Shown: positions 18,267 through 41,879 of the stretch, in pieces
How the letters are laid out: each line of letters opens with the position of its first letter
Position numbering within the stretch: the stretch's first letter is position 1
NCBI GenBank assembly: GCA_045660745.1
Contig: JAZREJ010000041.1
Coordinates: forward strand, 12,656 to 76,655
Direction: 5' to 3'
Source: Eubacteriales bacterium
GTDB lineage: Bacteria > Bacillota > Clostridia > Oscillospirales > SIG627
Length of the DNA stretch: 64,000 nt
The notes under the pieces: model-generated
The model's input: the letters and a program-made list of their open reading frames with translations, nothing else
The model's database searches: none
Told to the model about the DNA's origin: nothing
Translations under genes and position numbers: made by a program

Positions 18267-18305
18267 TGGAGTGTGTCTATAAATAATTTAAAAAGGAGGA
18301 ATACT

Positions 18306-23761: not shown

Positions 23762-23776
23762 AATAGGTGTTTTATC

Positions 23777-25012: not shown

Positions 25013-25039
25013 CATAAAAACATTAGGGAGATAACTTGT

Positions 25040-25384: not shown

Positions 25385-25447
25385 AGGTATATCTTTATAT
25401 AAATTTGGTTCAATAGTGCTTTAACTGTATTTAAAGAGAGGTTTTAT

Positions 25448-26281: not shown

Positions 26282-26295
26282 AGAGGAATAAAGCT

Positions 26296-27243: not shown

Positions 27244-27262
27244 TTATTGGAGAAAAAATAAC

Positions 27263-28021
27263 ATGGAAATAATTGACTTTCACGTCCACCCATTTCTTGA
27301 TGCAGACAAGAATTTTTGCCATTATAGAGAAACGATGAAAATCGATGAGAACACCTTTTTATCGGATATGGACGATGCAGGCGTATCCGTGTTTTGCGGA
27401 AGTGTCGTTAAGCGATGCGAAGGCTTTGAGGGGCTGAAGGAGTGCAATAGAGAAGCGATAAAGCTTAAAGAAATTTACGGCAATCGTTATCAGCCGGGTT
27501 TTCACATTCATCCCGCCTTTGTTGACGAGTCGGTTGATGAAATTAAGCTTGCAAAAGAACGTGACATTCGTATAATAGGCGAGCTTGTACCTTACATGCA
27601 TGGTTGGAGTGACTATTCCTGTAAGAGTTTTTCGGATATACTTGACGAAATTGAAAAATACGGAATGGTCGTGAGCTTACATACCATCAATCTTCAACAA
27701 ATGTCAAAAATGGCGGAGGCACATAGAAACGTGAATTTCGTTTTTGCTCATCCCGGCGAAAAAGCTTCGGTATCAGAGCATATCGAAATAATGAAAAGGC
27801 TTGACAACGTATATCTTGATTTGTCGGGGACAGGTCTTTTCCGATATGGACTTGTGCGCTATCTTGTAGACTCTGTTGGCGTCGAAAGAATATTGTTCGG
27901 CACCGATTATCCGATATGTAATTTGCCAATGTACATAGGAGCCGTTCTAGGAGAGAAGCTTTCAGATAGGGAAAGGGAGCTTATATTCAGCGGCAATGCA
28001 AAACGCTTACTCGGTTTGTAA
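27263..28021 (+). CDS. amidohydrolase-2 family metal-dependent hydrolase (TIM barrel)
   Basis: ORF track 27197..28021; start moved to ATG 27263 (MEIIDFHVHPF). Motifs FAHPG..LFGTDYP. Confidence 0.7.
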   Translation: MEIIDFHVHPFLDADKNFCHYRETMKIDENTFLSDMDDAGVSVFCGSVVKRCEGFEGLKECNREAIKLKEIYGNRYQPGFHIHPAFVDESVDEIKLAKERDIRIIGELVPYMHGWSDYSCKSFSDILDEIEKYGMVVSLHTINLQQMSKMAEAHRNVNFVFAHPGEKASVSEHIEIMKRLDNVYLDLSGTGLFRYGLVRYLVDSVGVERILFGTDYPICNLPMYIGAVLGEKLSDRERELIFSGNAKRLLGL

Positions 28022-28211: not shown

Positions 28212-28580
28212 ATGGATACGCCAAAGATATTTGAAAGTGAGTATAGGTTTTGTCTTATACTGTGGGAGAATGAGCCTATAAAAAGTCCCGAGCTTGCGCG
28301 CATTTGCGCTGAAAAGCTTGGTTGGAAGAGCTCGACTACTTACACTGTAATAAAGAGATTATCGGAGCGCGGAGTTCTCAAAAACGAGCATATGATAGTC
28401 AGCTCTCTCGTGTCTAAGGATGAAGCACAGATATCCGAGATAGACGAGCTTGTAGAGAAAAGATTCGAAGGCTCACTTCCCGCATTTGTTGCCGCATTTA
28501 CAAAAAGACGTGATATAACGGATGCTGAAATAGACGAATTACAGAAGCTTATTGACAATGCGAGGGGAGGGGCTAAATGA
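28212..28580 (+). CDS. BlaI/MecI/CopY family transcriptional repressor
   Basis: 122 aa winged-helix repressor of typical size. ATGA stop/start overlap with the downstream M56 gene. Confidence 0.85.
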   Translation: MDTPKIFESEYRFCLILWENEPIKSPELARICAEKLGWKSSTTYTVIKRLSERGVLKNEHMIVSSLVSKDEAQISEIDELVEKRFEGSLPAFVAAFTKRRDITDAEIDELQKLIDNARGGAK

Positions 28581-31213
28581 ACGGTATTTTCACAAATCTT
28601 GTCAACATGAGTATTTCAGCAAGTATCCTCGCGGGTATCGTACTGATACTCAGATTTGTATTGAAGAGTGCACCGAGATGGATATTTGTTTTGCTTTGGG
28701 GAATCGTTGCAATTCGCCTTGTGTGTCCCGTGACGCTTGAAAGCAATGCAAGTCTTATGCCTGCAACGGAATGGGTAAGCGTGAATGCGGTTACAGGCCC
28801 TGTTGTAACACCGATTGCTTCGCAGACGGATACCTCGGTTCCGAGTATTCCCACACATCCCGATATACAGGCTCCGGAATATACAGCAACAGGTCACGAA
28901 CCGTTTGTGGAAGAAGAGCCTGTAACCAAGACGAGCGTTTTGCCGTATATATGGCTTGCGGGTATTGCGGTAATGCTTGTATACGCTGTCGTAAGCTTTG
29001 TAAGACTTTACAGACGGGTTTCCGACGGAGTAAAGCTTCGCGACAGAGTATATCAAAGCGAAAAAACAGCGTCTCCCTTCGTGCTCGGCTTTTTCAAACC
29101 AAGAATATTTATTCCGTATTCACTAAAAGCCGAAAGCACCGAATACGTTATAGCGCACGAGATGGCGCATATTCGCCGTCATGACCATTGGTGGAAGCCG
29201 CTAGGATACCTTTTGCTTTCTTTACATTGGTTTAATCCTGTAATGTGGGTGGCGTACGTTCTTCTTTGCCGAGATATTGAGTCGGCGTGTGACGAAAAGG
29301 TGGTGCGGGATATGAGTATTCCCGAGCGTGCCGATTATTCCGAGGCGCTTCTTGGATGCAGTGTAAAAGCTCGCGGTGTTTCTGCTTGTCCTCTTGCGTT
29401 CGGCGAGACGGGTGTCAAAAGCCGAATAAAATCCGTGTTGAGCTACAAAAAGCCAGCTTTCTGGGTAATAATTATATCGCTTCTTTTGTGTGTAGGACTT
29501 GTGGTGTTCTTTTTGACAAGCCCAGAAGGAAATAAGGATATCGCTAAAAATACGGAGCTCGGGGAAATAACGCTTATTGACAGGATCGTCTCGCGTGAAG
29601 GGTATTGTGTTATCGAACAGCGATTTACCGACATTTCGCTCGGAATACACACCGCCCGTATCATGCCCGCCGTGACAGAGGGAGTTGAATACGAATTTCT
29701 TCCCGAACAAAGACCGGCATATCTTGCAGATGGTACACAGATATATTTGAAGCGAGTGTCTCAGGTGAAGGGTGATGACACAAAGCTTATTCTGACGTTT
29801 GATTTTGAACATTCGCTTGACGAAAACGGAGGAAGCTTTCTTTCTCCTTGGACGCTTACCGATAACGATACCTACCTCACGGTCTTTAACGTTGCTAACA
29901 GAAAGCTTTACGGAGTTCCGAACGACTATGACAACGCGGTGCTTACAGCGGGTCAGGGTCCCGACTTTGAAATATCCGTATACGTTTTGAAGGAGGCATT
30001 GCGTCACACGGGGGACGATGCCGTCGTCGTTGTGACCCTGAATCAGTTGACCTACCTCAAGGATTATGAAAGAAGGACTCTTTCAGAGGATGAGCTTATA
30101 GAGGATGCGCGCCTTGTTGCATCGGTTACTCACTACGAGCTTGAGGAGGGGAGTGTCAGACTGCACACAGGCAACACGTTTGAGGCTCAGTTTGATTCCG
30201 CCGACGGTATTCATACGGTAGGAGTAAAATACTCTAAAAAAGGAAATGGCTGGATGCTTGATGAAACGCCTGTGAACGTGTATATAAAAGGCACTGATTA
30301 CTCAGCAATTTCCCGAAAATTTCCGACTGTAAGCAGTTGGGCTGTAAGCTATGCCTCCGAAATAGGTGACAGAATTTCCGAGGAGCAGTGGGCTCTGTAT
30401 AACGGTAGCCGTTCAGCGACTATAACCGAGCTTAAGAAGCTTTCGACGAGCTCTCAAGAAAAAGATGAGGGAGTCGAGCTTTATTATATGACCTATTGGA
30501 TAGGCAAGGGTATCAACGGACCGGGATGGACAGATGAGTATAAGATGTTTTCACGGTATTTTGCACTTCACGTTGGAAGAGGCGAGGGTGACGGTTATGC
30601 TGCGATCAACCTTGGTGATATAAGTGTCGAGGAATTTAATAACACCTACAATACCGAAGCCATGATATCCCGCTACGGAAGTGCATATACTGCGGCGGCA
30701 ATGGAGCTATATCAAAACTATCTTTACAGCGGCAAGTCGGGTGTGTCTGCAACTCAGTCAATGGAGGATAAAATTCTTGATGCCTATAACATGGCAACCG
30801 AGGTGGCAAGCTGGTTCAGGATAGAGAGTATGTCTACAAATTGGAACGACTATGTTGATATCGGTGATAAAAGATATTATAAGACCGTACAATTTGAGAC
30901 CCGACGTGATTTGCGTGACTATCTGGAATCTTACTTTTCTGTGAGCGTTGTCGATGAACTATTGTCAAATGATATGTATATCGACTATAATGGAAAGCTT
31001 TACTCGACCGGCGGTGCGCGAGGAGCAGACCTTTTCAAAGGGCGCGAAAGCTATTTGATAACCCGTGTAAATGATACGAAATACTTGCTCAATGTTATTG
31101 TTGAGATATACGGCAACGATGCCGAAACTGTTGAAGATTACGAAGAGTTTATCTTCACCTATGAGAATGTTTCGGGGAGAGGGGTATTTACTTCATTTCC
31201 AAGCATAAGATAA
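28577..31213 (+). CDS. BlaR1/MecR1-like M56 peptidase signal transducer with a large non-canonical extracytoplasmic domain
   Basis: 878 aa. N-terminal TM segments and zinc motif HEMAHIRRHDHWWK, a further TM near aa 305-325, then about 550 aa without a recognisable penicillin-binding (class D) sensor. Confidence 0.8.
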   Translation: MNGIFTNLVNMSISASILAGIVLILRFVLKSAPRWIFVLLWGIVAIRLVCPVTLESNASLMPATEWVSVNAVTGPVVTPIASQTDTSVPSIPTHPDIQAPEYTATGHEPFVEEEPVTKTSVLPYIWLAGIAVMLVYAVVSFVRLYRRVSDGVKLRDRVYQSEKTASPFVLGFFKPRIFIPYSLKAESTEYVIAHEMAHIRRHDHWWKPLGYLLLSLHWFNPVMWVAYVLLCRDIESACDEKVVRDMSIPERADYSEALLGCSVKARGVSACPLAFGETGVKSRIKSVLSYKKPAFWVIIISLLLCVGLVVFFLTSPEGNKDIAKNTELGEITLIDRIVSREGYCVIEQRFTDISLGIHTARIMPAVTEGVEYEFLPEQRPAYLADGTQIYLKRVSQVKGDDTKLILTFDFEHSLDENGGSFLSPWTLTDNDTYLTVFNVANRKLYGVPNDYDNAVLTAGQGPDFEISVYVLKEALRHTGDDAVVVVTLNQLTYLKDYERRTLSEDELIEDARLVASVTHYELEEGSVRLHTGNTFEAQFDSADGIHTVGVKYSKKGNGWMLDETPVNVYIKGTDYSAISRKFPTVSSWAVSYASEIGDRISEEQWALYNGSRSATITELKKLSTSSQEKDEGVELYYMTYWIGKGINGPGWTDEYKMFSRYFALHVGRGEGDGYAAINLGDISVEEFNNTYNTEAMISRYGSAYTAAAMELYQNYLYSGKSGVSATQSMEDKILDAYNMATEVASWFRIESMSTNWNDYVDIGDKRYYKTVQFETRRDLRDYLESYFSVSVVDELLSNDMYIDYNGKLYSTGGARGADLFKGRESYLITRVNDTKYLLNVIVEIYGNDAETVEDYEEFIFTYENVSGRGVFTSFPSIR

Positions 31214-31219
31214 CAAAAA

Positions 31220-31249
31220 CAGGGTAGGACGTTTTAACGTCCTACCCTG
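31220..31249. terminator. bidirectional terminator hairpin between convergent genes
   Basis: CAGGGTAGGACGT (31220-31232) / ACGTCCTACCCTG (31237-31249). The T-run is on the minus-strand side (plus AAAAAC at 31215-31220). Confidence 0.7.
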
Positions 31250-31313
31250 CAAATGCTTTATTCTTCATCTAATAAACAGTTATAATAACAAGTAAAAACA
31301 AAATATTATTCTT

Positions 31314-31847
31314 TTAATTTGAGAACCAATTTATTGAACTGACAGAATTGACCGAACCGTCGTTCCATAATTTGATAACAGCTTGTTGCAGCTTATCCAT
31401 TCTTTGCGAATAGGCGCTTGCATTTAAGCCGGTCTCTGTTTTTTTCTGATTAAACGAGTGCGAGAACTCATCAAACCAGTAGATCATATCTGTGTTAACA
31501 ATGCAAAGAACGTTGTCTTCGTTGAACGCAAAGTATCCCGCGATGTTTGAATCAATTGTTATTCTCTTTTCTGAAGTTAATGTAAGATTATCTTTGCCGA
31601 AATCGCATATGACCAAAACCGAAGATTCTCTTCCAAAAATTGCCCGGGTGCACTTTTGTGCCTCTGTTACACTGTATCTGTCGGGTATTTTTATTTTTAA
31701 ATCTGCCCCGGTGCTCGTTGGAATCTCCGTCGGACTTTGCTTGTCGGGTGTTTTTGTTTTTACTACGGCAAAGCAAATAACTAACACTGACAGAACAACG
31801 AACAAAGAAACAGCTATTATCGTTATCCTTTTTCCAAAAATATACAC
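31314..31847 (-). CDS. hypothetical membrane-anchored protein
   Basis: 177 aa, GTG start. One N-terminal TM helix (IIAVSLFVVLSVLVICFAVV), then a Pro/Thr-rich linker and a globular domain. Confidence 0.5.
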   Translation of the reverse strand: MYIFGKRITIIAVSLFVVLSVLVICFAVVKTKTPDKQSPTEIPTSTGADLKIKIPDRYSVTEAQKCTRAIFGRESSVLVICDFGKDNLTLTSEKRITIDSNIAGYFAFNEDNVLCIVNTDMIYWFDEFSHSFNQKKTETGLNASAYSQRMDKLQQAVIKLWNDGSVNSVSSINWFSN

Positions 31848-31851
31848 AACA

Positions 31852-31896
31852 TCCTTTCTGCAAACATTTCAAAATGACTTTTTGCCCTTTTTCACC
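31852..31896 (-). promoter_or_regulatory. conserved intercistronic element, copy A
   Basis: Minus strand reads GGTGAAAAAGGGCAAAAAGTCATTTTGAAATGTTTGCAGAAAGGA. The 39-nt core is 35/39 identical to copy B (36883-36921). It ends 4 nt before the GTG start at 31847. Confidence 0.6.
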
Positions 31897-33529
31897 TGTA
31901 CCTCTCCCTGTACCTCTCAACTATCAAGAGTTCTTCTTCCGAATAGTACTCATCTTCGGTAATGGCGTCAAGTCCGTGATCATTTAAAAAGGAAAGATAA
32001 TTTTCATACTGTGTGATGAGCGCAAGAGCTATTTCCTTTTCACCGACAGTATAGGTCATATCTCCGCTTTCCTTGTCTATCCTGTATTTGGTCATTTCGC
32101 CATCCAAAAAAAGGGGTGCGGAAAAATTATCATAAAGTAATCTTTCGAGAGAACCATCCAAATTCGGAAATAGGCTTCTATAGGATGTCATATTAAAGAA
32201 CTGGATGTGAGATGGCGCCTCGTTATCTTCGATAATATAACGGCTTGTTATATTTTCGTATTCTGCATCATCAATATGCACACGTATCTTATCAGATACA
32301 AGGTAGAAAGCACGAGGATAGGGAGCGTTTTTCACCTGCTCTATAGAATACGCGTCAAAATCCGCGTTCATTTCCTCCATGGCAAAGGCTATGGGCACAC
32401 AGAAAGAGGCAAGCTCGGGGGTATCTATTTTTTTGATATACTCAAGAAGAGTGTCAAACGTTATACCGTTCTTTTTATAGTCGGAGGCGGTATGGACTGC
32501 AAGCCAGTCGGGGGTGAAGATTTTTCCGTTCGCTGTCAGCGCCCACGGACTCACGAATGCCCTGTTAAGAGCCACCTCGTCGCCCGAATAAAGAGCTTCT
32601 ATCTGCTCGTCGGTGAAAACACTTCCGTTTTCGGCATTTGCCTTGATAAAAACACTTTTCGGAATGTTCATTTCCTTTACCGCCGAAAGAACGGTAAGCT
32701 CCCACAGAGAGCGCTCTTTTTCGTAAAACGGCCGAAGGAAGCTTTTGAGAGTGTCCTTTTCCACAAGGTCTGCCACAAAGGCTTCTATTCCGTAAAAATC
32801 AGTGACGTATTTTGTGCAGTATTGTGCATATTCTGAAATATATACGTCCCTTCCGCTGTTGTTAAAGTTCCACGGCCAGGAAAGCACGCCCGTTTTTTCT
32901 ATCGCTTTATTATAAGAATTAGCTGTAGTTTCCTTCCAAGGATCCCATTGACTGTCATTATAGTTCTTTCTTTCGTTCAGCCAAAGGATAAGGTCGTTTA
33001 CATCGATTCCTTCCTCAAATTCTAAAACGGAAAATCCGTTTTCTTTTGAAGTGACAGACTCGTAATTCAAATATTGCAATGGCTGAAGCGTCTCTGTGTT
33101 CTTTAGAATATCTGCATCAAATTGAGCCCTGCCTCCAACAAACCTTATGTATTCTGCCCCCTTCTCGGAATAAGAGGGACAGTAATAGCAAAAGTCTTCG
33201 ATAGAGTTTATCCGAGTCAGTATAATATCTTCTTGACAAATATCTTGGAGATTTACAGTAGGGATAAACACTTCTTTTAAGTAAGATGGCTTGTGATCGT
33301 TTGCAAAGGTTGATGTGAGGTGATCGTACAACACTCGGCAGTTGACCTTCGTGTATTCGTCTTCTTTTTTATTTCCCAAGGAAATCGTTTCGTCGGTAAA
33401 GGCATCTATTTCGAGTAATACGTAAGATCTGAGCACTCTGCGCTTTTGTACCTTTTCCGGCAATTCATCAGCATATACCAGAGTCGAAAGAGTGATGAAA
33501 ACAAGTATACATATTATAAGCTTTTTCAT
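31892..33529 (-). CDS. hypothetical secreted protein
   Basis: 545 aa. Signal peptide MKKLIICILVFITLSTLVYA; RBS GGGGGAG. No family recognised. Confidence 0.6.
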   Translation of the reverse strand: MKKLIICILVFITLSTLVYADELPEKVQKRRVLRSYVLLEIDAFTDETISLGNKKEDEYTKVNCRVLYDHLTSTFANDHKPSYLKEVFIPTVNLQDICQEDIILTRINSIEDFCYYCPSYSEKGAEYIRFVGGRAQFDADILKNTETLQPLQYLNYESVTSKENGFSVLEFEEGIDVNDLILWLNERKNYNDSQWDPWKETTANSYNKAIEKTGVLSWPWNFNNSGRDVYISEYAQYCTKYVTDFYGIEAFVADLVEKDTLKSFLRPFYEKERSLWELTVLSAVKEMNIPKSVFIKANAENGSVFTDEQIEALYSGDEVALNRAFVSPWALTANGKIFTPDWLAVHTASDYKKNGITFDTLLEYIKKIDTPELASFCVPIAFAMEEMNADFDAYSIEQVKNAPYPRAFYLVSDKIRVHIDDAEYENITSRYIIEDNEAPSHIQFFNMTSYRSLFPNLDGSLERLLYDNFSAPLFLDGEMTKYRIDKESGDMTYTVGEKEIALALITQYENYLSFLNDHGLDAITEDEYYSEEELLIVERYRERYR

Positions 33530-33533
33530 AATA

Positions 33534-34088
33534 TCACTCCCCCCCTAACTGTTCAAAAAGCTCTTTGCAAAGAGCGTGATATGCTTCGTATTGCGAAATA
33601 AGAGCGGAAGCAGTCTCATCTGAGTGCAGTTCTTTGTCGGGGACAGAGGTGTTGTCGGCTCTCGTCGACAAGGCAACAGTATAAGTGCTCGTGCCGTATG
33701 GAACAAAAACACTTGTTTCTTCTGCTCTGTAACCCTCGGGAAGGGTACTTTCGTCTATTGTAAAAGCAAAGAACTCACTCGGTCTTTCAAACGCGACAGA
33801 TCCGTTCTCAGTTTTTTTGTTGAACACCAATTCCTTTTGGTAACTCATTTGATGTTCAAGTGAGTGTATCGGAACGTATTTGTAAACGTTTATTTGAATA
33901 CCAGAAAGATCGACCTTTTCATCATCGCACGTGAGGACCAACGAGAAATCTCCGATTTCATCCGACAAAGTGATATCCGTGTCGGATACGGGTTTTTCGG
34001 TGCCCTCGGCGGGAGGGCTTTTTTTCGCACATCCCGCCATTAGCAAAAGCACAAGAGTGAGTAATAGACAGATATTATGTTTTTTCAT
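33534..34088 (-). CDS. hypothetical lipoprotein
   Basis: ORF track 33534..34148; start moved to ATG 34088 (MKKHNICLLLTLVLLLMAGC, lipobox MAGC). Confidence 0.6.
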   Translation of the reverse strand: MKKHNICLLLTLVLLLMAGCAKKSPPAEGTEKPVSDTDITLSDEIGDFSLVLTCDDEKVDLSGIQINVYKYVPIHSLEHQMSYQKELVFNKKTENGSVAFERPSEFFAFTIDESTLPEGYRAEETSVFVPYGTSTYTVALSTRADNTSVPDKELHSDETASALISQYEAYHALCKELFEQLGGE

Positions 34089-34155
34089 ATATAACCCCAT
34101 GTTCAAGAACTGATAATTACATACTGCAAAGTTTGATAGTTTTTTCATATATACG

Positions 34156-35198
34156 TTAGTTTAATGCTGCATTAATATCATATGATACATTACCAACAAT
34201 TCCCTCGTTAATGATAACTACTGTTATTTCTTTTGCCCCATTGCCTCCGAAACTAATCTCGTTAATTATATACTCGTTATTTTGAATAGTTGCTTCTGAA
34301 ATACTATAATTTCCGGTATAGGTTTTTTTGATAACCTTTACTCTAGTGTTAGAACCAGAGAAATTTACAGTTATTGTTATTGGTTGCACGCTACTTCCGG
34401 AAGGTTTAAACGTAATATAATTACTTGAAAGAGGGGATAACGATTCTTGTTGATTAGACGGGTAAGCAAAAGGATACGAAGTGCATTCTTGTGTTCTTTG
34501 TGCTTTTCCCCATGCATTGTTTCCTGTAGGTGCTATATCATAAAAATAATCTGCATCACTGTTAAATGTCATGAACCCGGAATATGCTTTTGCAAGATTG
34601 TAATTCGAGTTGTGGAGCGTTAATCCGGTATTAATCGCGGTCAAAGGATTGTTCGACGAGGTTGCGAATGATGCGAGAATTTTTTTAAGTTGAACAAAAT
34701 ACAGTGTCAATCTCATCAAAGACGTTGGCAACGGCTTCTGCAACCTCTATATTGACTGTAGTGCTTGCCTAATAATATACTCTGAATCTTCCCACTGTTT
34801 TACAATCATATGTTTGAGGCCATGTGTCATCATTTCGTCTTGACAATTCGTCTAATGTCCGTTGTATTGTGGACATATCGTAATCTTTGGAATCGCGATT
34901 ATTTTCATAAAATCTGCTTATCTCCCAATGTAATCCTGTGCCACATTCTTTTCTTATTATTTTTGTTTCGGCTTCTTCGCCTAAAATGGATTTACAAAGA
35001 GATAACACATAGTCATATTCTGAAATATCATCTTTATTTTTTGCAGTGTCAAATGTGTTTAATTCTGTTTGACAATCGTTGTTACAACATGCGGGGACTT
35101 TTTCTGTGCTTATTTCATTTGCATAAATTGGAAGTAACACTTGCAATAAAACCAAGGTGATAAGTAAAATGCTTATAATTTTTTTAATAGATTCTCAT
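34156..35198 (-). pseudogene. decayed gene for a secreted protein (two ORF fragments, 34769..35155 and 34156..34743)
   Basis: ATG 35198 is out of frame by 1 nt with the signal-peptide-like IKKIISILLITLVLLQVLLPIYA. In-frame TAG at 34771-34769. A plausible protein sequence (ASTTVNIEVAEAVANVFDEIDTV) continues past the TAG, then the frame shifts into the 34743 ORF. Confidence 0.55.
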
Positions 35199-35314
35199 TA
35201 TTAATAGAAAGGTTGAACGGCGTGTTAATTCAGTTAAGCCACATCGTATTCGCCTCCTTTTTGAGATTTGATATGCAATAAAATAAAGTGTAAATTGAAT
35301 AAAGCTCATTCTCT

Positions 35315-36562
35315 TTAACGAAGTGCACTTGTGCTTATGTAATAATAAACAAGTGACGAGGTCGTAACAGCATCTCCTCCAAGCTCTTTATTCGGAGTAT
35401 ATTCGGCGGCTCCAAAAATCAAATAATCATCTGTAACGTGACCGATATAATGCTTTCCGTCATTTATTGTATCGACATAAACAAGAATATCGTTCTTCAC
35501 ATCGTAATACATTGGGCAATCATTGTTCCATCCATCCCACACTATTAATGAATCATTACAATCAACAAGGTCTATTGTCAAAGAACTTTTAATTATCGGA
35601 TAAGATTTATTGTTTTTATACAGTATAAGCCCGTCATCAATTTTCGCAACCAGCGTGTTGTTATATCCGCTCAAATATAAATAGTTTTGTCCCAAAAATA
35701 TATCCGATTGCTCAGGCATTGTATTTTTTAAAACATACTCTTTTTTTGATTCATCATACCCCAGATATGAAACACCATTGTAATATATTGGCTCGGTAGC
35801 CCTTTTTTCGGCAACCAATGTAATTTCGTCCGCTTCTATATTATACTTATATAAATTAACGTTGGCTTTATTGTTGGTTACAGATACCGTGTCCTGAAAA
35901 TAAACTTCATTATCATTAATAACAATAGCACCAAAATTCCAGGAATACATATATCCGTTTTCGTCCTTTGTATAAGTGTAAAAGAGCTTGTTTACGCCTG
36001 TGTTCATGTCAAGACAGTTCAATGAAGCCTTAAGCCAATTGGCATTATCATCCTCCTTCCAAATAACATATCTGTCATTAACTACATAAATAGAGATTTC
36101 TTTATCTGTATTGAAGTGATATACGGTTTCCTCGGTGCAAGTGTCTAGGTTATATCTAAGAATGCTTTTATTCCCGTTTTGCTCTACTAAAAAATACAAA
36201 TAATTTTTATATTCTGCATGCAAAGCAAATGTATCATAAGATTCAATATTATTAAAAACCACCTTGTTTAGAGTTAAGCTCGGATAAACATTTGAAAACG
36301 CTTCGCATTTTTTATATAAATTTAATGTATACCTTTGAATATAATCTTTGCCTCCGACGTATTCCTTATATGCTATCTCTTTTTCTACAATTTCATAATG
36401 TTTGTTTTTATTAAAAACATCTGTGTCGATTTTCAAAACATTAGATATACCTTCTTCTTGTTCGTCTGCGATATCCGAAAAAGGCTCAGAGTTTCCTTTG
36501 CATGAAGAAAAAGTAAGAAAAAAACACAGCAATAGTACCGCAAATAATTTTTTATTAAACAT
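35315..36562 (-). CDS. hypothetical lipoprotein, beta-propeller-like (DUF5050/TolB-like pattern)
   Basis: 415 aa; lipobox FSSC. Repeated hydrophobic/aromatic beta-strand pattern (YNLDT..VYHF, YVIW, LYKYNIE, etc.). Confidence 0.6.
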   Translation of the reverse strand: MFNKKLFAVLLLCFFLTFSSCKGNSEPFSDIADEQEEGISNVLKIDTDVFNKNKHYEIVEKEIAYKEYVGGKDYIQRYTLNLYKKCEAFSNVYPSLTLNKVVFNNIESYDTFALHAEYKNYLYFLVEQNGNKSILRYNLDTCTEETVYHFNTDKEISIYVVNDRYVIWKEDDNANWLKASLNCLDMNTGVNKLFYTYTKDENGYMYSWNFGAIVINDNEVYFQDTVSVTNNKANVNLYKYNIEADEITLVAEKRATEPIYYNGVSYLGYDESKKEYVLKNTMPEQSDIFLGQNYLYLSGYNNTLVAKIDDGLILYKNNKSYPIIKSSLTIDLVDCNDSLIVWDGWNNDCPMYYDVKNDILVYVDTINDGKHYIGHVTDDYLIFGAAEYTPNKELGGDAVTTSSLVYYYISTSALR

Positions 36563-36594
36563 AATTTCTCCTTAAAATCTCATGACCTTTCTTA

Positions 36595-36870
36595 TCAAAA
36601 CAAATTTGTTATATTTGTTTTGATACTATACACTGTATTTTGCTCAAAGTTTTCTCCTACATATACTCTTGCAACTGTTTTGACTCGATATGTACCATTT
36701 GATAAACCCGATTTTGCATTGGTTAAAGAGCTTTTATATCGGATATTCAAATCTGAAAGGATCGAAGATGTATACATATATCTTGGAGTTACAGAGCCTG
36801 CTAACACAGTGATAAAAAAGCAACTTAACAAAAGCAATACCATAATTACCGACATCATCTTTTTAAGCAT
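36595..36870 (-). CDS. small secreted hypothetical protein
   Basis: ORF track 36595..36960; start moved to ATG 36870 behind AAAGGAGGGGG. Signal peptide MLKKMMSVIMVLLLLSCFFITVLAG. Confidence 0.5.
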   Translation of the reverse strand: MLKKMMSVIMVLLLLSCFFITVLAGSVTPRYMYTSSILSDLNIRYKSSLTNAKSGLSNGTYRVKTVARVYVGENFEQNTVYSIKTNITNLF

Positions 36871-36882
36871 AAGAATTCCCCC

Positions 36883-36928
36883 TCCTTTCTGCAAGTATTT
36901 TGAAATGACTTTTTGCCCTTTCATAAAC
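36883..36928 (-). promoter_or_regulatory. conserved intercistronic element, copy B
   Basis: Minus strand reads GTTTATGAAAGGGCAAAAAGTCATTTCAAAATACTTGCAGAAAGGA. Lies between the anti-sigma stop (36967) and ATG 36870. Confidence 0.6.
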
Positions 36929-36966
36929 ATATAACAAATCAGAGGGGGAAATTCTTTCACATTTTT

Positions 36967-37626
36967 TTACTTTTTTACAGATTCGGCAATTTTAACCAAA
37001 ACATCCTTGCCGATATTGGTAGATATATAAAAAACATATTCTCCGTTGTCCCACATTACGTGATGATAATCGTGATTATCTTTATAGTATATTCCGACAT
37101 TCCCGTTTATATTGATCTCTTCAATAACGGTATCCTCGGTATTAAGGCTAATATTAAAGCCCGATTTTGTATATTGATTAAAGCTTATCACGAGATTATC
37201 CTTGACATAATCAACGCATCTCGATATCGGAGTGACGCTCCACACATCCTCAATATATCCGTCAAGGTTATAAGTTATTTTGTAAAGCTCTTCAATGGAC
37301 TGCGAGGCGTTATTATCAAGTTGAACCAAAACCATTGAATTGGTATCAAAAATGCTTACAAAGAAGTTTGCAACGGCACTTCTCACGCTATCGAAAGCCA
37401 AAGCGGTTGCGGATAAGCAAAGCAACAGAATCAAAATAAAGCAAGCAACACGTTTTCTTGTAGAATTGATCAATTTATAATACGGTTTTTTACGCCTTTT
37501 TATCAATGCTCCCATTTTGTCTTCAAACTCTTTTGTGAAAATATGTTCGTCAGGCGAAATACTGTCGCATTCCTGAAGCATCGCATTTTGTAAAGCGATA
37601 ACAAAAACTTTATTGATCTTGTTCAC
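36967..37626 (-). CDS. anti-sigma factor-like membrane protein (DUF4367-type C-terminal domain)
   Basis: 219 aa. Overlaps the sigma gene by 17 nt. Cytoplasmic N-terminus, one TM (VACFILILLLCLSATALAF), C-terminal ...VMWDNGEYVFYISTNIGKDVLVKIAESVKK. Confidence 0.7.
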   Translation of the reverse strand: MNKINKVFVIALQNAMLQECDSISPDEHIFTKEFEDKMGALIKRRKKPYYKLINSTRKRVACFILILLLCLSATALAFDSVRSAVANFFVSIFDTNSMVLVQLDNNASQSIEELYKITYNLDGYIEDVWSVTPISRCVDYVKDNLVISFNQYTKSGFNISLNTEDTVIEEININGNVGIYYKDNHDYHHVMWDNGEYVFYISTNIGKDVLVKIAESVKK

Positions 37627-38149
37627 CTTCCTCCAAAAGATTTTTTAATTGTTTTTTTGCCCTACCTATGCGCACAGAAACTGTATTTTCCGTTATCGTG
37701 AGCATTTTTGCTATTTCTTTTGTTGAAAATCCAATTACGTAACGTAGATATAAAACATCTTTATAAATATCATCAAGCTGTAAGATACAATTTAAAAGCA
37801 CTTCATAATTATAGTTTTCGAAAAAATCTATCTCTATTGCGGTCGTATCATCGTTAAATTCTTTATGGTGGCTTGCATTTCTTTTGTTTTTGTTATAAAT
37901 GTTAATAGCTGCGTTCTTAGCTATAATAACAACGTATGGCTTTAATTCATGACAGGATAATTGAGAAATTTTTTCAAAACTATTTGCAATATTTAAAAAA
38001 GCTTGATGAACCGCATCTTCTGAATCGTGAACGTTTTTCAAAATATTAAAGCATACCGAATACATATATTGCTTGTAATTTATATACAACTCTTCAAAAC
38101 TTCTTTTTTGTTCTTCACGTTCCAATACAGAAAGATATAATTGCAACAT
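37610..38149 (-). CDS. ECF-type sigma-70 family RNA polymerase sigma factor
   Basis: 179 aa. Region 2 (DSEDAVHQAFLNI) and region 4 HTH (FSTKEIAKMLTITENTVSVRIGRAKKQLK). Confidence 0.9.
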   Translation of the reverse strand: MLQLYLSVLEREEQKRSFEELYINYKQYMYSVCFNILKNVHDSEDAVHQAFLNIANSFEKISQLSCHELKPYVVIIAKNAAINIYNKNKRNASHHKEFNDDTTAIEIDFFENYNYEVLLNCILQLDDIYKDVLYLRYVIGFSTKEIAKMLTITENTVSVRIGRAKKQLKNLLEEGEQDQ

Positions 38150-38288
38150 TTGTAACCCCTTTTAGCCCGAAAATCAAACTGAATTTTAATTGAATAAGCA
38201 ATTGCAAGTAACACAAAAATTCTCCTATAAAATCGCGAAGGTTTGCAGATATCACCTGCCTAATACGACTTTTTGTTACTTTATTACA

Positions 38289-38318
38289 ATTATAACACGG
38301 CATCAACATTAAAGTCAA
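38289..38318 (-). promoter_or_regulatory. sigma-A-type promoter upstream of the sigma/anti-sigma operon
   Basis: Minus strand TTGACT (38318-38313), 18-nt spacer, TATAAT (38294-38289), followed by a leader of about 130 nt. Confidence 0.55.
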
Positions 38319-38393: not shown

Positions 38394-38452
38394 CAAAAAA
38401 TCAAGCGGGAGGCTCACCGGCTTACTAAACGTAAGTCAAGAGTCTCCCGCTT
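38394..38452 (-). terminator. terminator of the 43630-38491 carbohydrate operon
   Basis: Minus strand: AAGCGGGAG / CTCCCGCTT outer stem (38452-38444 / 38411-38403), inner stem CTTAC/GTAAG, then GATTTTTTG. Confidence 0.75.
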
Positions 38453-38490: not shown

Positions 38491-39567
38491 TTAAAGCTTA
38501 ATAGGTTTACCTGTCCTTATACTTTCGTAGCAAGCATTCATAGCACAAATAGTATTGCGGTGCCATCCAAGATTAATCTTGGGGGTCTTGCCCTCACGGA
38601 TACAGGTTGCGAACTCATCAATGAGTCCTACCCACTCGTCAAAGTATGTGTACTGAACAACGTACTTGGAGTCGGGAGTAGAATTGTGATATACGTTGGG
38701 ACCGAAGCAATCGGTCATAACAGAGCCCTTGTCGGCATTGAGAATGATGTTAACCTCCATTCTCTTGGGGAAGATCTCCCATCCGGGACCGGGAACCTTA
38801 AGCTTAGCTTCGGTTCTTGACCAAGAGGGGTCGAGAAGGAATACAACGCCGTTTTTCATCTTACCTGTTACTGCAACCATATCCTCTTCCTCAATATCTA
38901 GACGGATGTTAGGTGCAACAGTTGCAAAGATGGTATCAAATTCACTGCCTGTCATCTCGCGGATGAGGTCAAAAATGTGGGGATGGTCACAGATAGCACC
39001 GCCTCTGAAACGGTGATCACCGTCCTTGAGGGGAACTCTCTTACCGTAGCTCTTCTCGGGAACGCCCTGCCAGGGGAACGCCCAAACGGGAGAAAGGGTG
39101 ATATTTGTCGCCTCAAAAGAACGGAGTGTTCCGAGAGCACCTGCGTTGTTAAGCTCCTTAAGTCTCATTACAACGGGCTTGTAGTGAAGCTCAAGCTCAA
39201 CCTGGAATACGATTCCCGCCTCACGGCATACTCTTTCCATTTCTGCATACTCCTCCATATCGAAGGTGGGTATCTTCATGGAGAGGATATGGATGCCGCG
39301 CTCTGCACACATCTTAACCTGACGGAGGTGATCGCTGTTCTCACTTGCAAGAACTACAGCCTCGATCTCGGGATGCTCGGCAAGCATCTGTTCCTCACTG
39401 TCATAGCAAGGAATACCCTGTACGGAATTGAGGAATATCTCCTTTACTTCAGCGTTAGCACAGGAAACTGCAACCCAATCAAGCTTGGGGTTGTCGCGAA
39501 GTGTCTGATAATACTTTCTTGTGTGTCCATGGGTCATGGACATCATAGCAATTTTAATAGGCTTCAT
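38491..39567 (-). CDS. Gfo/Idh/MocA family oxidoreductase
   Basis: 358 aa. N-terminal Rossmann-like segment KIAMMSMTHGHTRKY..EAVVLASEN and a C-terminal alpha/beta domain. Confidence 0.8.
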   Translation of the reverse strand: MKPIKIAMMSMTHGHTRKYYQTLRDNPKLDWVAVSCANAEVKEIFLNSVQGIPCYDSEEQMLAEHPEIEAVVLASENSDHLRQVKMCAERGIHILSMKIPTFDMEEYAEMERVCREAGIVFQVELELHYKPVVMRLKELNNAGALGTLRSFEATNITLSPVWAFPWQGVPEKSYGKRVPLKDGDHRFRGGAICDHPHIFDLIREMTGSEFDTIFATVAPNIRLDIEEEDMVAVTGKMKNGVVFLLDPSWSRTEAKLKVPGPGWEIFPKRMEVNIILNADKGSVMTDCFGPNVYHNSTPDSKYVVQYTYFDEWVGLIDEFATCIREGKTPKINLGWHRNTICAMNACYESIRTGKPIKL

Positions 39568-39581
39568 TATGTGTCCCTCCC

Positions 39582-40271
39582 TTATACTCTTATGTTATCA
39601 ACGGTCTCGATAGCAAGACGAGCAGCCTTAACAACTGCGTCGATGTGGTCAGCCGCAGCTTCTGTTTCGGTTCCGTTCTGTGCAATATCGAAGGTGTGAC
39701 GGATGATAGCGCACTCATCAATGTTGAGCCCGAAAAGCTCGGCATCAACGTCGGTGAAGGTAGTGTTTGTATCACCGAAAACGTAGATAGAGCTCTGGGG
39801 TACCTGAGTATCAACAACTCTGTCGCAAACGTTACCGGATACTGCGATCATCTCGTGCTTGTCAATGGGAGCCTGAGTATCGGGAAGAGTTGCGGAAAGC
39901 TCAAAGGAGCAAACGATTCCATTTTCGCTCTTTGCGATGGCGTTGAGTGCAACACCGCCATTTTCAACAGCAAAGATCTCAGCGATCTTTTCGCCCGAGA
40001 TATACTCAAATACATCCGCCTCACGCCAAAGAACATCGTAGAGGTTGGTGCCTCTCTTTGTAATGTGAGTGACTCTTACGGTGGAAAGACCTGTAAGTCT
40101 GCCCTGTACCACAAGATTTCTCATCTCGATAAATCTGCGCTCTGCACGCCATGGGAGAAGTCTAACCTTCTTACCTGCAACAAGCGCTTCCTTCTCACTT
40201 ACAAGCTCTGCCTTTGTGGCAACGTCGTACTTTGCAAGAAGAAACTCAAGCTTTTCCTGAAGTTTTTTCAT
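39582..40271 (-). CDS. Gfo/Idh/MocA C-terminal-domain-like protein lacking a Rossmann fold
   Basis: 229 aa. Segment RFIEMRNLVVQGRLTGLSTVRV...VFEYISGEKIAEIFAV..NGIVCSFELSAT resembles the oxidoreductase C-terminal domain. No N-terminal nucleotide-binding segment. Confidence 0.5.
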   Translation of the reverse strand: MKKLQEKLEFLLAKYDVATKAELVSEKEALVAGKKVRLLPWRAERRFIEMRNLVVQGRLTGLSTVRVTHITKRGTNLYDVLWREADVFEYISGEKIAEIFAVENGGVALNAIAKSENGIVCSFELSATLPDTQAPIDKHEMIAVSGNVCDRVVDTQVPQSSIYVFGDTNTTFTDVDAELFGLNIDECAIIRHTFDIAQNGTETEAAADHIDAVVKAARLAIETVDNIRV

Positions 40272-40291
40272 GGTTTTATTCCTTTCTTAAA

Positions 40292-41041
40292 TTAAAGCAT
40301 TTTTATGCGAGGCCTATACTTTGCAAGATAAGCCGCATTCTTTTCGTCACCGCCGGGAGTATTTGCGCTTGACCATACAGGAGGAGTGATTCCTCTCTCA
40401 ATACACTGACGCACACACTCAATCTCAAGAAGATGAGCAATGTAGAAATCAACTATGTTGGAGGTGGGCGCAATGGGAGTGTCAAGACCCGGTACGTTTA
40501 CAACAGCGTCACCTACGGGGTTGTAGTCGTCAATGCAAACGTCTGCATAATCGAAGAGATTCTTCTTGTTCGGATGGCGGATAAAGTGATCGGCGGGCAT
40601 CTCGTCCTGCCAGTAGGAGCTGGAGATAGCAATAATCTTAACGCCTCTCTTCTTTGCTTCCTCAGCGGCATCTATGGTTGCGGGGTTGATACCGATGTTG
40701 TGGAAGATGATAAGAAGGTCTCCTTCCTTAAGATCATAGTACTTGAGAATGGATGAGCCGTAGTTTACGGTACGCTCAAGCTCAAGATATTTGAGCGCCT
40801 GATTGAAAACAGAAAGACCTGTTTCCATACAAGGATTGATGCAGGCAAGACCGCCCGCTCTGAAGAACATCTCACCGAGGGGAAGGGTGGTATGTCCGCC
40901 ACCGCCGTATACACTGATAAGGCGATCGTTTTCTATAGCGTCAGCCATAAGGCTTGCCGCTTTTTTTATATTTTCTTCCTGCTTTTCGTTTATCTCTTCA
41001 AGGTTTGCAAGAATACTCTTAAAATAACCGAAATCATTCAT
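40292..41041 (-). CDS. SIS domain protein (UPF0309-like)
   Basis: 249 aa. Segment DRLISVYGGGGHTTLPLGEMFFRAGGL..IAISS; paralog of 41880..42599. Confidence 0.75.
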   Translation of the reverse strand: MNDFGYFKSILANLEEINEKQEENIKKAASLMADAIENDRLISVYGGGGHTTLPLGEMFFRAGGLACINPCMETGLSVFNQALKYLELERTVNYGSSILKYYDLKEGDLLIIFHNIGINPATIDAAEEAKKRGVKIIAISSSYWQDEMPADHFIRHPNKKNLFDYADVCIDDYNPVGDAVVNVPGLDTPIAPTSNIVDFYIAHLLEIECVRQCIERGITPPVWSSANTPGGDEKNAAYLAKYRPRIKML

Positions 41042-41870
41042 ACTGAAGTTTCCTTTCTATTTCTTTTCTTGTTGGGATAGCATCAATAACATGGGCTCTT
41101 GTAACGCTGATTCCGCTTGCGGCATTGGCAAAACGGCAAGACTCTTCAAGGCTCATATTCTCAGCCAAGCATACAGCAAGCACCCCGTTGAAGGTATCGC
41201 CTGCGCCGGTTGTGTCAACGGGACGATCAGAAGTTGCGGGGACAACAGTCGTACCGTTTATAAGGCAACCCTTTTTGCCGAGGGTCACTATAGTGTTTTC
41301 AAAAAGCTGTGGGTCCAAAAAGCGAGATTCTTGCTCATTGGGGGTTGCAAGGAACAGCTTTTCCGAAATCAGGGCTTTTCTTGCGGGAGCGGGATTGAGT
41401 ATTACGCGTACACCGTGCTTTTTCGCAATTTCCATTGCACACGCGTTCACTTCTTGCGGTACCTCGTTTTGCAAAAGCAGAATATCGCTCGACTCAATCT
41501 CCTTTTCAAAAGCACCTACATCCTCTTCCGTAAGCTCGGCTCCCCTGTAGACCGTCACACGGTTTTCACCGTTTTTGTCGGTCAGGATAAATGCCGTAGG
41601 ACTGGGGGTATTCTTTTTTATAAGGAACGGAGTGATACCGTTTTCGATACAGCACTCAAGACTTGCACGCCCGTCCGAGTCATCTCCGACAGCGGCAAGA
41701 AACGAGACCTGCGCCCCAAAGCGTGCGGCGGCGACAGCCTGATTCATGCCCTTGCCGCCAACCTCGTAAAAAAGCGAGTCGGCGGAAAGAGTCTCTCCGT
41801 TTTCGTGGAAATGGTCGACTGTCATGAAATACGAGCCGCCAACGATACCGATAACAGATATTTTAGCCAT
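41034..41870 (-). CDS. PfkB family carbohydrate kinase (ribokinase-like)
   Basis: 278 aa. Motifs GGKGMNQA and DTTGAGDTFNG. Confidence 0.9.
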   Translation of the reverse strand: MAKISVIGIVGGSYFMTVDHFHENGETLSADSLFYEVGGKGMNQAVAAARFGAQVSFLAAVGDDSDGRASLECCIENGITPFLIKKNTPSPTAFILTDKNGENRVTVYRGAELTEEDVGAFEKEIESSDILLLQNEVPQEVNACAMEIAKKHGVRVILNPAPARKALISEKLFLATPNEQESRFLDPQLFENTIVTLGKKGCLINGTTVVPATSDRPVDTTGAGDTFNGVLAVCLAENMSLEESCRFANAASGISVTRAHVIDAIPTRKEIERKLQYE

Positions 41871-41879
41871 GTCAACCTC

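Follow-up and report, generated by a model that had tools for sequence, protein, structure and literature searches.

Does a run of genes for secreted, lipidated and membrane-anchored proteins, headed by a sigma factor and standing among genes of a different base composition, represent a single regulated unit, and is it native to the genome in which it is found? This question is raised by a block of minus-strand genes at positions 31314-38318 of a 64,000-nucleotide stretch of DNA from a Eubacteriales bacterium (Oscillospirales, SIG627; assembly GCA_045660745.1, contig JAZREJ010000041.1, positions 12,656 to 76,655). We refer to this whole stretch as the window, and all coordinates are those of the window unless another locus is named. 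The block (Table 1) starts with an extracytoplasmic function (ECF)-type sigma factor whose gene is overlapped by that of a DUF4367 protein, and continues with a small secreted protein of 91 aa, a 415-aa lipoprotein, a decayed gene for a secreted protein, a second lipoprotein, a 545-aa secreted protein and a protein with an N-terminal transmembrane (TM) anchor. An initial annotation had taken these genes for one A+T-rich island under the control of its own sigma factor, and the gene order and common strand that it gave are correct. The reading that we favor, with a probability of roughly 0.6, is that of a composite insert, in which a decaying copy of a conserved cassette (sigma factor, DUF4367 protein and small secreted protein) stands together with an unrelated module of three genes at a variable, rearranged site.

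Composition of the block

Base composition divides the block in two. The mean GC content is 0.443 over the whole window and 0.361 over the block, and a sliding-window calculation shows that the deviation is carried by 34000-38318 only, where GC falls to 0.329 and the GC at third codon positions (GC3) of the genes to 0.24-0.39. Windows of 4.3 kb outside the block have a mean GC of 0.455 (standard deviation 0.021, minimum 0.403), and 34000-38318 lies about 6 standard deviations lower. The left part (31314-34000), with a GC of 0.412 and a GC3 of 0.41-0.45, overlaps ordinary host genes such as those at 22985-28021 (GC 0.40-0.44), and on account of their GC3 the three left-hand genes resemble ordinary host genes. 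The A+T-richness attributed initially to 31.3-38.3 kb, and most strongly to 34-38 kb, is therefore real for 34000-38318 but does not hold for 31.3-34.15 kb, which is within the host range. The block consists of two compositional modules, an A+T-rich right-hand part of 4.2 kb and the three host-like genes on the left. This division had been missed, as had the facts that the 91-aa gene is a deletion derivative and that one further gene has been deleted (see below).

The signal peptides, lipoboxes and TM anchor ascribed to the products of the block were all recovered on checking, and so were the in-frame stop and the frameshift of the decayed gene at 34156-35230. Searches of Pfam, NCBIfam and PHROGs matched only the sigma factor and the DUF4367 protein among the block proteins, in agreement with the initial impression that, the pattern in the 415-aa lipoprotein apart, the cargo belonged to no recognised family.

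Table 1. Features of the block and of its two edges, listed from right to left (GC3, GC at third codon positions; SD, Shine-Dalgarno sequence; ORF, open reading frame).
Feature	Position	Strand	GC3	Remarks
Intrinsic terminator of the upstream sugar operon	38395-38450	-		GCGGGAG...CTCCCGC, then T-run; right-hand edge of the insert
Predicted housekeeping (sigma-A type) promoter of the sigma/putative anti-sigma pair	38289-38318	-		TTGACT-N18-TATAAT, extended TG, 11/12; best of the region
ECF-type sigma factor, 179 aa	37610-38149	-	0.24	Regions 2 and 4 only (Pfam and NCBIfam)
In-gene motif copy, TGTCAT-N17-TGTTAT	37926-37954	-		Inside the sigma ORF, offset +196
DUF4367 protein, 219 aa, putative anti-sigma factor	36967-37626	-	0.39	Overlaps the sigma gene by 17 nt
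Conserved leader of the small-protein gene	36871-36966	-		Promoter-like motif and anti-SD:SD hairpin, terminator-like
Small secreted protein, 91 aa	36595-36870	-	0.28	Family member shortened by an in-frame deletion of 141 nt, C-terminus replaced
Palindrome at the junction of a 1091-nt deletion	36596-36640	-		blastn alignment breaks at 36625 (L104 1706 and 2798)
415-aa lipoprotein	35315-36562	-	0.31	Lipobox TFSSC; small rare family
Pseudogene of a secreted protein	34156-35230	-	0.25-0.31 (pieces)	No ATG before the signal peptide; in-frame TAG at 34769-34771, second stop, frameshift
184-aa lipoprotein	33534-34088	-		Lipobox LMAGC; ORF reaches 34148 via a duplicated 15-nt start region; host-like GC
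545-aa secreted protein	31892-33529	-		Near-orphan, one relative in 5.8 billion clusters
39-nt copy of the 3' part of the leader (36883-36921)	31852-31890	-		90% identical; just upstream of the TM-anchored gene; promoter and anti-SD part absent
177-aa protein	31314-31847	-		N-terminal TM anchor (TM check)
Strong intrinsic terminator	31219-31250	-		14-bp perfect stem and T-run; closes the minus-strand block; common to the convergent BlaR1-like gene
Three left-hand genes together	33534-34148, 31892-33529, 31314-31847	-	0.41-0.45
Flanking genes			0.45-0.60

The insertion site

The sugar operon that flanks the block on the right (38491-43630) is kept in 80 species-level Clostridia genomes, with best matches at 95%, 88%, 83% and 81% (Fumia xinanensis). 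The homology of the window with its relatives stops at ~38483. Along the same lines, the 80 species-level loci retrieved with the flanking oxidoreductase contain no island gene and no BlaR homologue, and their synteny stops at the oxidoreductase gene. The block is not present at the same site in seven related loci (L001, L106-L111). There the slot 3' of the oxidoreductase is filled either with an aldose-epimerase, DUF5107, GH5 and AraC set (L001, L107-L111) or, in L106, with BlaI-BlaR, located directly after the oxidoreductase, across a gap of 360 nt and in the direction of the operon (L106 10001-14393, compared with window 28.2-39.6 kb). The genes of YuaJ, HSP90, S15 and PNPase come next in both types of slot. 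In the window, BlaI-BlaR (28212-31213) is inverted relative to the sugar operon, with the 7-kb block in between, so that the block sits at a rearrangement point. The window lacks the YuaJ, HSP90, S15 and PNPase genes that come next in the relatives, which means that one end of a larger inversion or rearrangement is located here.

The proteins of the block are rare. When ~15 billion proteins are clustered at 90% identity, most of them are singletons, the sigma factor and the TM-anchored protein each share a cluster with one other member, and the lipoprotein at 33534-34088 is not in the collection at all, while the cluster of the flanking oxidoreductase has 17 members. Exact-protein look-ups found no contig on record with either the exact 545-aa protein or the exact flanking oxidoreductase. 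The block thus shows both deviant composition and absence from the same site in relatives, two criteria of a genomic island, and its proteins are singletons or near-singletons, so that in this respect the island proposed initially was borne out. As had also been reported, no integrase, transposase or flanking direct repeat is visible; we found no mobility domain of any kind among the island proteins, no repeats flanking the block and no tRNA in the window. A plasmid collection gave no blastn match to the whole island. Judged from these comparisons, the block is a genuine, horizontally acquired accessory insert. The slot that it occupies, on the 3' side of a conserved sugar operon, is variable and rearranged.

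The neighbour on the left deserves a description of its own. A BlaI-like repressor (28212-28577, plus strand) is followed by an 878-aa BlaR1-type M56 peptidase that extends to 31213, whose long extracellular C-terminus matches, at a score slightly under the Pfam cut-off, the IseA DL-endopeptidase-inhibitor domain (PF16800, 2.5e-6, 28.0 bits against a cut-off of 29.9) and not a penicillin-binding sensor domain. The orthologue in L106 has the same architecture.

A cassette shared with other loci

A way to see which genes of the block belong together is to ask which of them travel together elsewhere. We have defined a cassette, which had no name, as a sigma factor, a DUF4367 protein and a small secreted protein encoded adjacently, in this order and on one strand. 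The window genes at 38149-36595 have this order, and their small protein is 30% identical to the member in L091 over its shortened length. Scanning metagenomes with the DUF4367 protein retrieved ten loci. In nine of them the DUF4367 gene is preceded by that of a sigma homologue (36-55% identical), the tenth (L092) being too short to show one, and the small secreted protein came next wherever downstream sequence exists. Three members of the small-protein family on long contigs (P0045, P0100 and P0037) led to six further loci (L098-L103), where each lies directly 3' of a 176-178-aa sigma factor and a 221-223-aa DUF4367 protein, and a single IMG/VR locus (L112) has the same order. The triad is therefore found in all the cassette loci with enough sequence (L088-L091, L096, L098-L103, L104 and L112).

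What follows the triad is different from one locus to the next. A second small secreted protein, two FtsX permeases and an ATP-binding cassette (ABC) ATPase are found in L090, L091 (where the contig ends after the first permease) and L098-L100, and the two permeases and the ATPase without the second small protein in L096. The cargo is a lipoprotein and an ABC-2 transporter in L088, two dockerin proteins in L102 and L103, a 199-aa protein in L101, a C39-like peptidase in L104 and a 1285-aa secreted protein in L112. Since the cargo differs between loci, the conserved unit is the triad, which seems to serve as a transferable 'head' to which different secreted or envelope cargo is attached. Of the initial proposal of an envelope or extracellular module under sigma control, the location of the cargo is upheld, all of it being secreted or associated with the envelope, but the eight genes are not one homogeneous module, only the triad being conserved elsewhere.

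The surroundings of these sister cassettes are also telling. A ParM-like actin (actin-like protein, ALP) and NikA/MobC adjoin the cassette in L088 and L090, a serine recombinase and an AAA_25 protein in L098-L100, and a serine recombinase, a relaxase and NikA/MobC in L101, while L102 and L103 look chromosomal. The mechanism of acquisition, initially called unclear, is made less so by the relaxase, NikA/MobC, serine recombinase and ParM-like genes beside the sister cassettes. Taken together, the loci indicate that the cassette is widespread in gut Clostridia, often on mobile elements, and previously undescribed.

The small secreted protein belongs to a family of at least 795 clusters (profile search at E<=0.01; 90%-identity clusters) of ~135-142 aa and without a Pfam domain, whose members are named only 'hypothetical protein' in Ruminococcus and in metagenome-assembled genomes (MAGs) of Clostridia. 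The AlphaFold2 (AF2) model of a full-length member (64 sequences) has a predicted local distance difference test score (pLDDT) of 85, and >95 over residues 40-140 and thus the mature part, and shows a seven-strand beta-sandwich. Foldseek against the PDB retrieved for it only generic immunoglobulin (Ig)-like domains, at a template-modeling score (TM-score) of ~0.4. The full-length proteins of L091, L098 and L104 matched no Pfam family at E<=0.05, Lactococcin_972 included, and nothing in NCBIfam.

Other genes near the sister cassettes caught our attention. Just upstream of the cassette in L098-L100 (3075-6054) there are a region-4-only sigma-like gene (210 aa) and a second sigma factor (186 aa) with an overlapping 300-aa partner without Pfam match, so that these elements carry more than one sigma-type regulator in a row. 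The plasmid-like contig L088 has, a few kb away from its cassette (16474-19173, minus strand), the gene of an 899-aa secreted protein in which a zinc-metalloprotease motif (HEFGHVVHH) and a dockerin-like C-terminus can be recognised by eye.

The sigma factor and its putative anti-sigma factor

The sigma factor matches Sigma70_r2 (30.2 bits, cut-off 24) and Sigma70_r4_2 (50.4 bits, cut-off 25.7) of Pfam, with no match to region 3 or region 1, and TIGR02937 of NCBIfam (77.2 bits, cut-off 42.9). No model of a specific ECF subgroup was reached (sigma_PG0214, 78.8 bits for a cut-off of 130; PRK12542, 77.6 for 211; SigM subfamily, 68.2 for 148). The protein is 50-55% identical to the sigma factors of L088-L091. 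TTGACT/TTGATT...TATAAT-like promoters, comparable to the one predicted ahead of the sigma gene in the window, are also found upstream of the sigma homologues in L088, L097, L101 and L102.

The DUF4367 protein has a cytoplasmic N-terminus of ~56 aa ending in KKPYYKLIN, one TM helix (~residues 57-83) and an extracytoplasmic domain that matches PF14285 with 62.1 bits (cut-off 22.1, E=8.4e-17), residues 115-217 aligning with positions 2-110 of the 110 of the profile. At 77 bits to TIGR02937 and 62 bits to DUF4367, the ECF-type sigma factor at the head of the block and its overlapping DUF4367 partner, as described initially, are secure. The 17-nt overlap of the two genes recurs in L088/L090 and L104, and two ENA metagenomic contigs (L104 and L105) have a gene for exactly the same 219-aa protein. 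None of the known anti-sigma domains of Pfam was detected in it (no zf-HC2, RskA or DUF4179). From the position of its gene, the overlap and the membrane topology, the DUF4367 protein most likely acts as the anti-sigma factor of the ECF-type sigma. DUF4367 has been described as an extra domain on SsdC of Bacillus subtilis, the orthologue of GerS, a lipoprotein regulator of spore germination (bioRxiv 10.1101/2025.01.13.632879). In the literature searched, SsdC was the only mention of DUF4367, and no established function for the domain was found.

The juxtamembrane sequence (R/Q)KKPYYKLIN(T/S) is near-invariant in the homologues of the window, L088, L090, L091 and L096, even between proteins that share only ~30% identity overall. 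Such conservation makes this motif a candidate site for sigma binding or for regulated proteolysis.

The leader of the small-protein gene

Upstream of the small protein, and directly after the DUF4367 gene, comes a leader whose conservation is recognisable even where the proteins of the cassette are only 30-55% identical. It contains a promoter-like motif, TGAAAG-N17-TGTTAT in the window (36931-36959, minus strand), the spacer of which holds the anti-Shine-Dalgarno (anti-SD) CCCCC (36944-36948) that pairs with the SD GGAGGGGG (36878-36885). Among the leaders compared, the -35-like hexamer varies (TGTCAG, TGTCAC, TGTCGC or AGTCAG, and TGAAAG in the window), the spacer is exactly 17 nt and the -10 hexamer is (C/T/G)GTTAT, with GTTAT invariant in 11/11. 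A CCTCC-like anti-SD in the spacer pairs with the SD 60-70 nt downstream. The probability that the SD is paired is at least 0.86 in 10 of the 11 leaders (1.0 in the window), with minimum free energy (MFE) z-scores of -4.8 to -8.3 against dinucleotide shuffles (-4.9 in the window), and four of the nine consensus pairs of the helix show compensatory changes. The hairpin has a short U-rich tract on its 3' side. A scan of 30.5-39 kb against Rfam at a relaxed threshold returned only STnc50, at 27 bits for a gathering score of 55, which is not credible, so the leader matches none of the RNA families described.

In its strict form the motif has a single match in the 64 kb of the window, against 0.28 expected by chance. 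The motif is enriched in cassette loci, with 14 hits in 258 kb versus 1 in 2.3 Mb of control loci. A copy of it is located inside the sigma ORF (Table 1); of the nine loci in which this copy was placed (the window, L088, L090, L091, L096, L098, L101, L102 and L104), eight have it at +196 and L101 has it at +187. In several loci the in-gene variant agrees with that of the leader: both are TGTCAC...CGTTAT in L096, and both are TGTCAG...TGTTAT in L098, L101 and L102. Possibly the anti-sigma gene is fed from the in-gene copy, as an internal cognate promoter.

Decay of the window copy

The metagenomic locus L104 shares 99.1-99.7% identity with window 34203-38189 and is the more complete of the two. 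It encodes a small protein of 135 aa, and the window copy is 141 nt shorter (47 codons, corresponding to one of the two internal repeats) and ends in a different C-terminus, so that the two-repeat, full-length protein of L104 and of the family consensus is not present in the window. What had been listed as a 91-aa secreted protein is secreted indeed, but it is really the 135-aa protein minus 47 codons. The stretch missing at the palindrome of Table 1 contains in L104 (1880-2773) the gene of a 297-aa secreted C39-like cysteine peptidase (Pfam Peptidase_C39_2, 5.6e-8, 33.9 bits, cut-off 24). The first stop of the pseudogene is a CAG (Gln) codon in L104, while the later stop and the frameshift are common to both. 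Both copies have an intact sigma factor, DUF4367 protein, leader and 415-aa lipoprotein. These differences point to decay of the window copy, which we take to have been acquired recently. Its output arm is probably crippled, because the small protein is short of a repeat, the gene of the C39-like peptidase is gone and a further gene has become a pseudogene.

The conceptual translation of the pseudogene has no relative in any of the loci retrieved, and its fragment has no significant sequence match in the PDB; an impression of a metalloprotease N-terminus with a C-terminal beta domain was backed by no tool and has been dropped. Between the 415-aa gene and the pseudogene (35215-35250, minus strand) there is a strong ribosome-binding site, AAAGGAGG, followed by an ORF of four codons (ATG TGG CTT AAC TGA), which looks like the stump of another lost gene.

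The 415-aa lipoprotein had been described as having a beta-propeller-like (DUF5050/TolB-like) pattern. Its family is small: a word-indexed search gave two matches, and HMMER, run exhaustively over 1.84 billion proteins, gave 59 representatives at E<=1e-3. The sequence profiles do not recover the pattern: there is no Pfam match at E<=0.1, DUF5050 appears weakly in one of 45 relatives (E=0.0063), and the family profile gave nothing significant against the PDB (best E 0.022, to non-propellers). The top 50 Foldseek matches in the PDB of an AF2 model built from two sequences only, of low confidence (pLDDT 46), are all beta-propellers or repeat-blade proteins (E 1e-6 to 8e-5), at TM-scores of 0.15-0.26 and a root-mean-square deviation >11 A. 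On this model a beta-propeller is a plausible reading of the protein. A homologue that is 41-43% identical (P0004) is found in an unrelated context with no sigma gene (L082-L087). The 381-aa lipoprotein of L088 was considered as a further relative and rejected (BLASTP E=0.089, hhalign probability 18%).

The left-hand genes

The three left-hand genes are found with no other cassette. The 184-aa lipoprotein matches nothing in Pfam, NCBIfam or PHROG and has no relative in any of the loci retrieved. The 545-aa protein, without Pfam, NCBIfam, PHROG or PDB sequence match, has its one relative (P0002) at 67% identity over 59% of the query. On a short ENA contig (L081, 4390 nt) this relative adjoins a frameshifted copy of the TM-anchored protein that is 81-84% identical to the one in the window, with 84-88% nucleotide identity between contig and window, and no sigma gene accompanies the pair. 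Beside it lies a metallophosphoesterase-like gene whose homologue in the window (63739-63992) is ~32 kb away, so that the pair has moved within related genomes.

These genes continue the strand of the cassette, with no strong terminator before 31219-31250, and just ahead of the last of them stands the 39-nt copy of the leader (Table 1). Chance would not be expected to yield the exact 39-mer, which had no match in 100 shuffles. We read this fragment as a trace of past recombination with the cassette leader and not as evidence of sigma control. By composition and distribution, the left-hand genes are a separate, host-like module, tied to the cassette only by position and by this fragment. A 27-nt repeat has a third, 78% identical copy inside the sigma ORF (37637-37663), which we attribute to chance or to coding constraint.

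Where the A+T-rich part meets the host-like part there is an exact 15-nt direct repeat (34079-34093 and 34139-34153; TATATATGAAAAAAC on the minus strand), with its copies 60 nt apart, that duplicates the region of the ATG start of the 184-aa lipoprotein gene and gives two in-frame MKK starts. It may mark a recombination junction.

Proposed mode of action

The most likely mode of action of the cassette is ordinary ECF logic, with the promoter-in-hairpin leader as its unusual feature. From the housekeeping promoter, sigma and anti-sigma would be made together, and the anti-sigma would keep the sigma at the membrane until an extracytoplasmic cue reaches the DUF4367 domain. The freed sigma would then fire its cognate promoter, TGTCAG-N17-TGTTAT (TGAAAG-N17-TGTTAT in the window), ahead of the small-protein gene and the cargo. 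As this promoter lies within the 5' arm of the hairpin that pairs with the ribosome-binding site, a transcript initiated by the sigma would start past the anti-SD, leave the SD free and be translated, while read-through from the sigma operon would carry the whole hairpin and be terminated or untranslatable; because of this arrangement, only sigma-initiated transcripts would be translated. We infer from sequence the anti-sigma role, the dependence of the motif on the sigma, the gating by the hairpin and the loss of output in the window copy.

Several observations weigh against this picture and against the composite insert. No element ends were found at the block. The upstream regions of the sigma genes contain no copy of TGTCAG-N17-TGTTAT, and without a target-type motif there the classical autoregulation of such sigma factors is unsupported. 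With its ~56 aa, the cytoplasmic part of the DUF4367 protein does not reach the length of classical anti-sigma domains, and it lacks a zinc-binding HxxxCxxC motif; we know of no experiment or homologue showing that DUF4367 proteins bind sigma factors. An alternative reading of the leader motif is that of a sigma-A promoter whose -10 is extended (TGnTATnnT), conserved codons (C-Q-E...Y-I-V-I-I) could account for the in-gene copy, and in the window the two -35 hexamers differ (TGAAAG in the leader, TGTCAT in the gene). With respect to decay, an 85-aa short form of the small protein exists in L096 and a single-repeat protein might still fold and function; moreover, it is from the family consensus that we infer a deletion in the window and not an insertion in L104.

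Alternative explanations

Among the alternatives, the one closest to the initial annotation is a single, intact, sigma-headed operon of eight genes, forming a coherent envelope or extracellular module with all of its cargo in the sigma regulon. The single strand, the short gaps and the fact that the products are all secreted, lipidated or membrane-anchored would fit it well, as would the presence of only one strong sigma-70-type promoter (38289-38318) and only one strong terminator on the same strand (31219-31250) and the recurrence of the 39-nt leader piece before the last gene. It has to accommodate, however, two compositional classes and a set of genes of which only three travel together elsewhere, the 545-aa/TM-anchored pair (L081) and the 415-aa homologue (L082-L087) being found without a sigma gene. 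Moreover, one of the genes has become a pseudogene, another is truncated and a third has been lost. The anti-sigma gene is followed by a terminator-like hairpin and by a separate promoter-like motif ahead of the next gene, which does not favor the single transcription unit suggested initially, and the cognate-promoter motif occurs just once outside the sigma ORF. We consider this alternative unlikely.

An equally unlikely one is that of a bacteriocin-like toxin/immunity locus, analogous to that of lactococcin 972, with the small, Sec-secreted, beta-rich protein as the antimicrobial, the FtsX/ABC proteins of sister cassettes for export or immunity and C39-like processing, of which the window would hold a disarmed remnant. 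It is suggested by the ATPase that accompanies the two FtsX permeases in sister cassettes, for which TIGR03608, 'putative bacteriocin export ABC transporter', is the best or second-best NCBIfam match (207-227 bits), by the C39-family-like peptidase of L104, by the mobile-element context and by the variable, fast-evolving cargo. These scores, however, stay under the cut-off of TIGR03608 (254.85 bits), and the LolD, MacB and FtsE models score about equally. The small protein has no Pfam match, Lactococcin_972 included, its predicted fold resembles only generic Ig-like sandwiches, no transporter lies next to it in L101 or L104 and there is none in the window; antimicrobial activity is known for no member of the family.

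It is slightly more doubtful that the triad is a self-contained, transferable signalling device of an undescribed kind. Its features would be the promoter buried in the hairpin, negative feedback through the anti-sigma gene from the promoter inside the sigma ORF, and a secreted small protein that acts on the extracytoplasmic DUF4367 domain, making up an extracellular autoregulatory or cell-cell loop by which the cargo of the element, whatever it is, would be turned on.

A prophage or phage-derived regulatory remnant, with the sigma and its partner as regulators of phage late genes, could be suspected from PHROG matches (phrog_1740 for the sigma, 1.8e-28; phrog_12603 for residues 24-218 of the DUF4367 protein, 4.7e-9) and from the triad on one IMG/VR contig (L112), but it is very improbable given that this is 1 locus among 2.9 million viral contigs, that a tblastn search of 50,697 phage genomes gave no match to the DUF4367 protein, and that there are no capsid, tail, terminase, lysis or integrase genes in the block or beside the cassette in L088-L104, where the neighbours are of the plasmid or integrative and conjugative element (ICE) type (relaxase, MobC, ParM). 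Just as improbable is that there is no island at all and that these are ordinary lineage-specific core genes, A+T-rich for example through weak expression or as fast-evolving surface proteins, since, although the left part (31.3-34.15 kb) is within the host GC range and the flanks have no integrase, tRNA or direct repeats, the block is missing in seven related loci with the same flanking operon, a metagenomic contig not linked to this site carries a 99% identical copy, whereas the flanks reach only 67-78% identity to the nearest genome in which the neighbours are the same, and the GC3 of the sigma gene is 0.24 against 0.45-0.60 in the flanking genes.

Biological meaning

As a single locus the composite insert is of modest interest, being small, accessory and in decay, in one of the variable slots of the genome of an uncultured member of the gut Clostridia. 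Of greater importance is the cassette. It brings together a small-protein family of at least 795 clusters, without Pfam model or name, with very different cargo, and it suggests for DUF4367 a role that can be tested, that of sensor domain in an anti-sigma factor. The leader, with its promoter set inside a structure by which the ribosome-binding site is blocked, is a compact example of a design that would insulate the regulated gene from read-through. ECF signalling has been little studied in gut Firmicutes, for which the cassette, if correctly interpreted, would add an ECF group with its target promoter and a first member of its regulon.

Comparison with known systems

Like the TolB/DUF5050 propellers, the 415-aa lipoprotein is predicted to be all-beta with repeated four-strand units, and Kelch, TolB and other propellers are its top Foldseek matches (pLDDT 46, TM-score ~0.25); unlike TolB/DUF5050 lipoproteins, it has no DUF5050 match in Pfam.

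Lactococcin 972-type loci encode a Sec-secreted, beta-rich bacteriocin and a dedicated ABC transporter of the TIGR03608 group and, to our knowledge, have no sigma/anti-sigma pair. The sister cassettes are similar in that a small, Sec-dependent, all-beta protein is followed by FtsX-type permeases and an ATPase with TIGR03608 among its top matches. They differ in that the small protein has no Lactococcin_972 match and the ATPase stays below the cut-off, and the window has no transporter.

The regulatory pair is best compared with SigW-RsiW and SigV-RsiV of Bacillus subtilis, each an ECF (group 4) sigma factor co-transcribed with a single-pass membrane anti-sigma factor. The cassette has, in the same way, a two-domain sigma (regions 2 and 4) overlapped by a gene whose product consists of a cytoplasmic N-terminus, one TM helix and an extracytoplasmic domain. 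The promoter of SigW is TGAAAC-N16-CGTA, and the target-like motif of the cassette is also of ECF style, with TGTCAG at -35, a 17-nt spacer and (C/T)GTTAT at -10. Unlike the sigma factors of these pairs, that of the cassette fits no ECF subgroup model, its partner carries only DUF4367, and its gene is preceded by a housekeeping-type promoter, the motif being located instead inside the sigma ORF. As for SsdC, the likeness lies in the extracytoplasmic C-terminal domain of the 219-aa protein, which matches PF14285 from end to end; unlike in SsdC, DUF4367 is here part of a membrane-anchored protein that is translationally coupled to a sigma factor.

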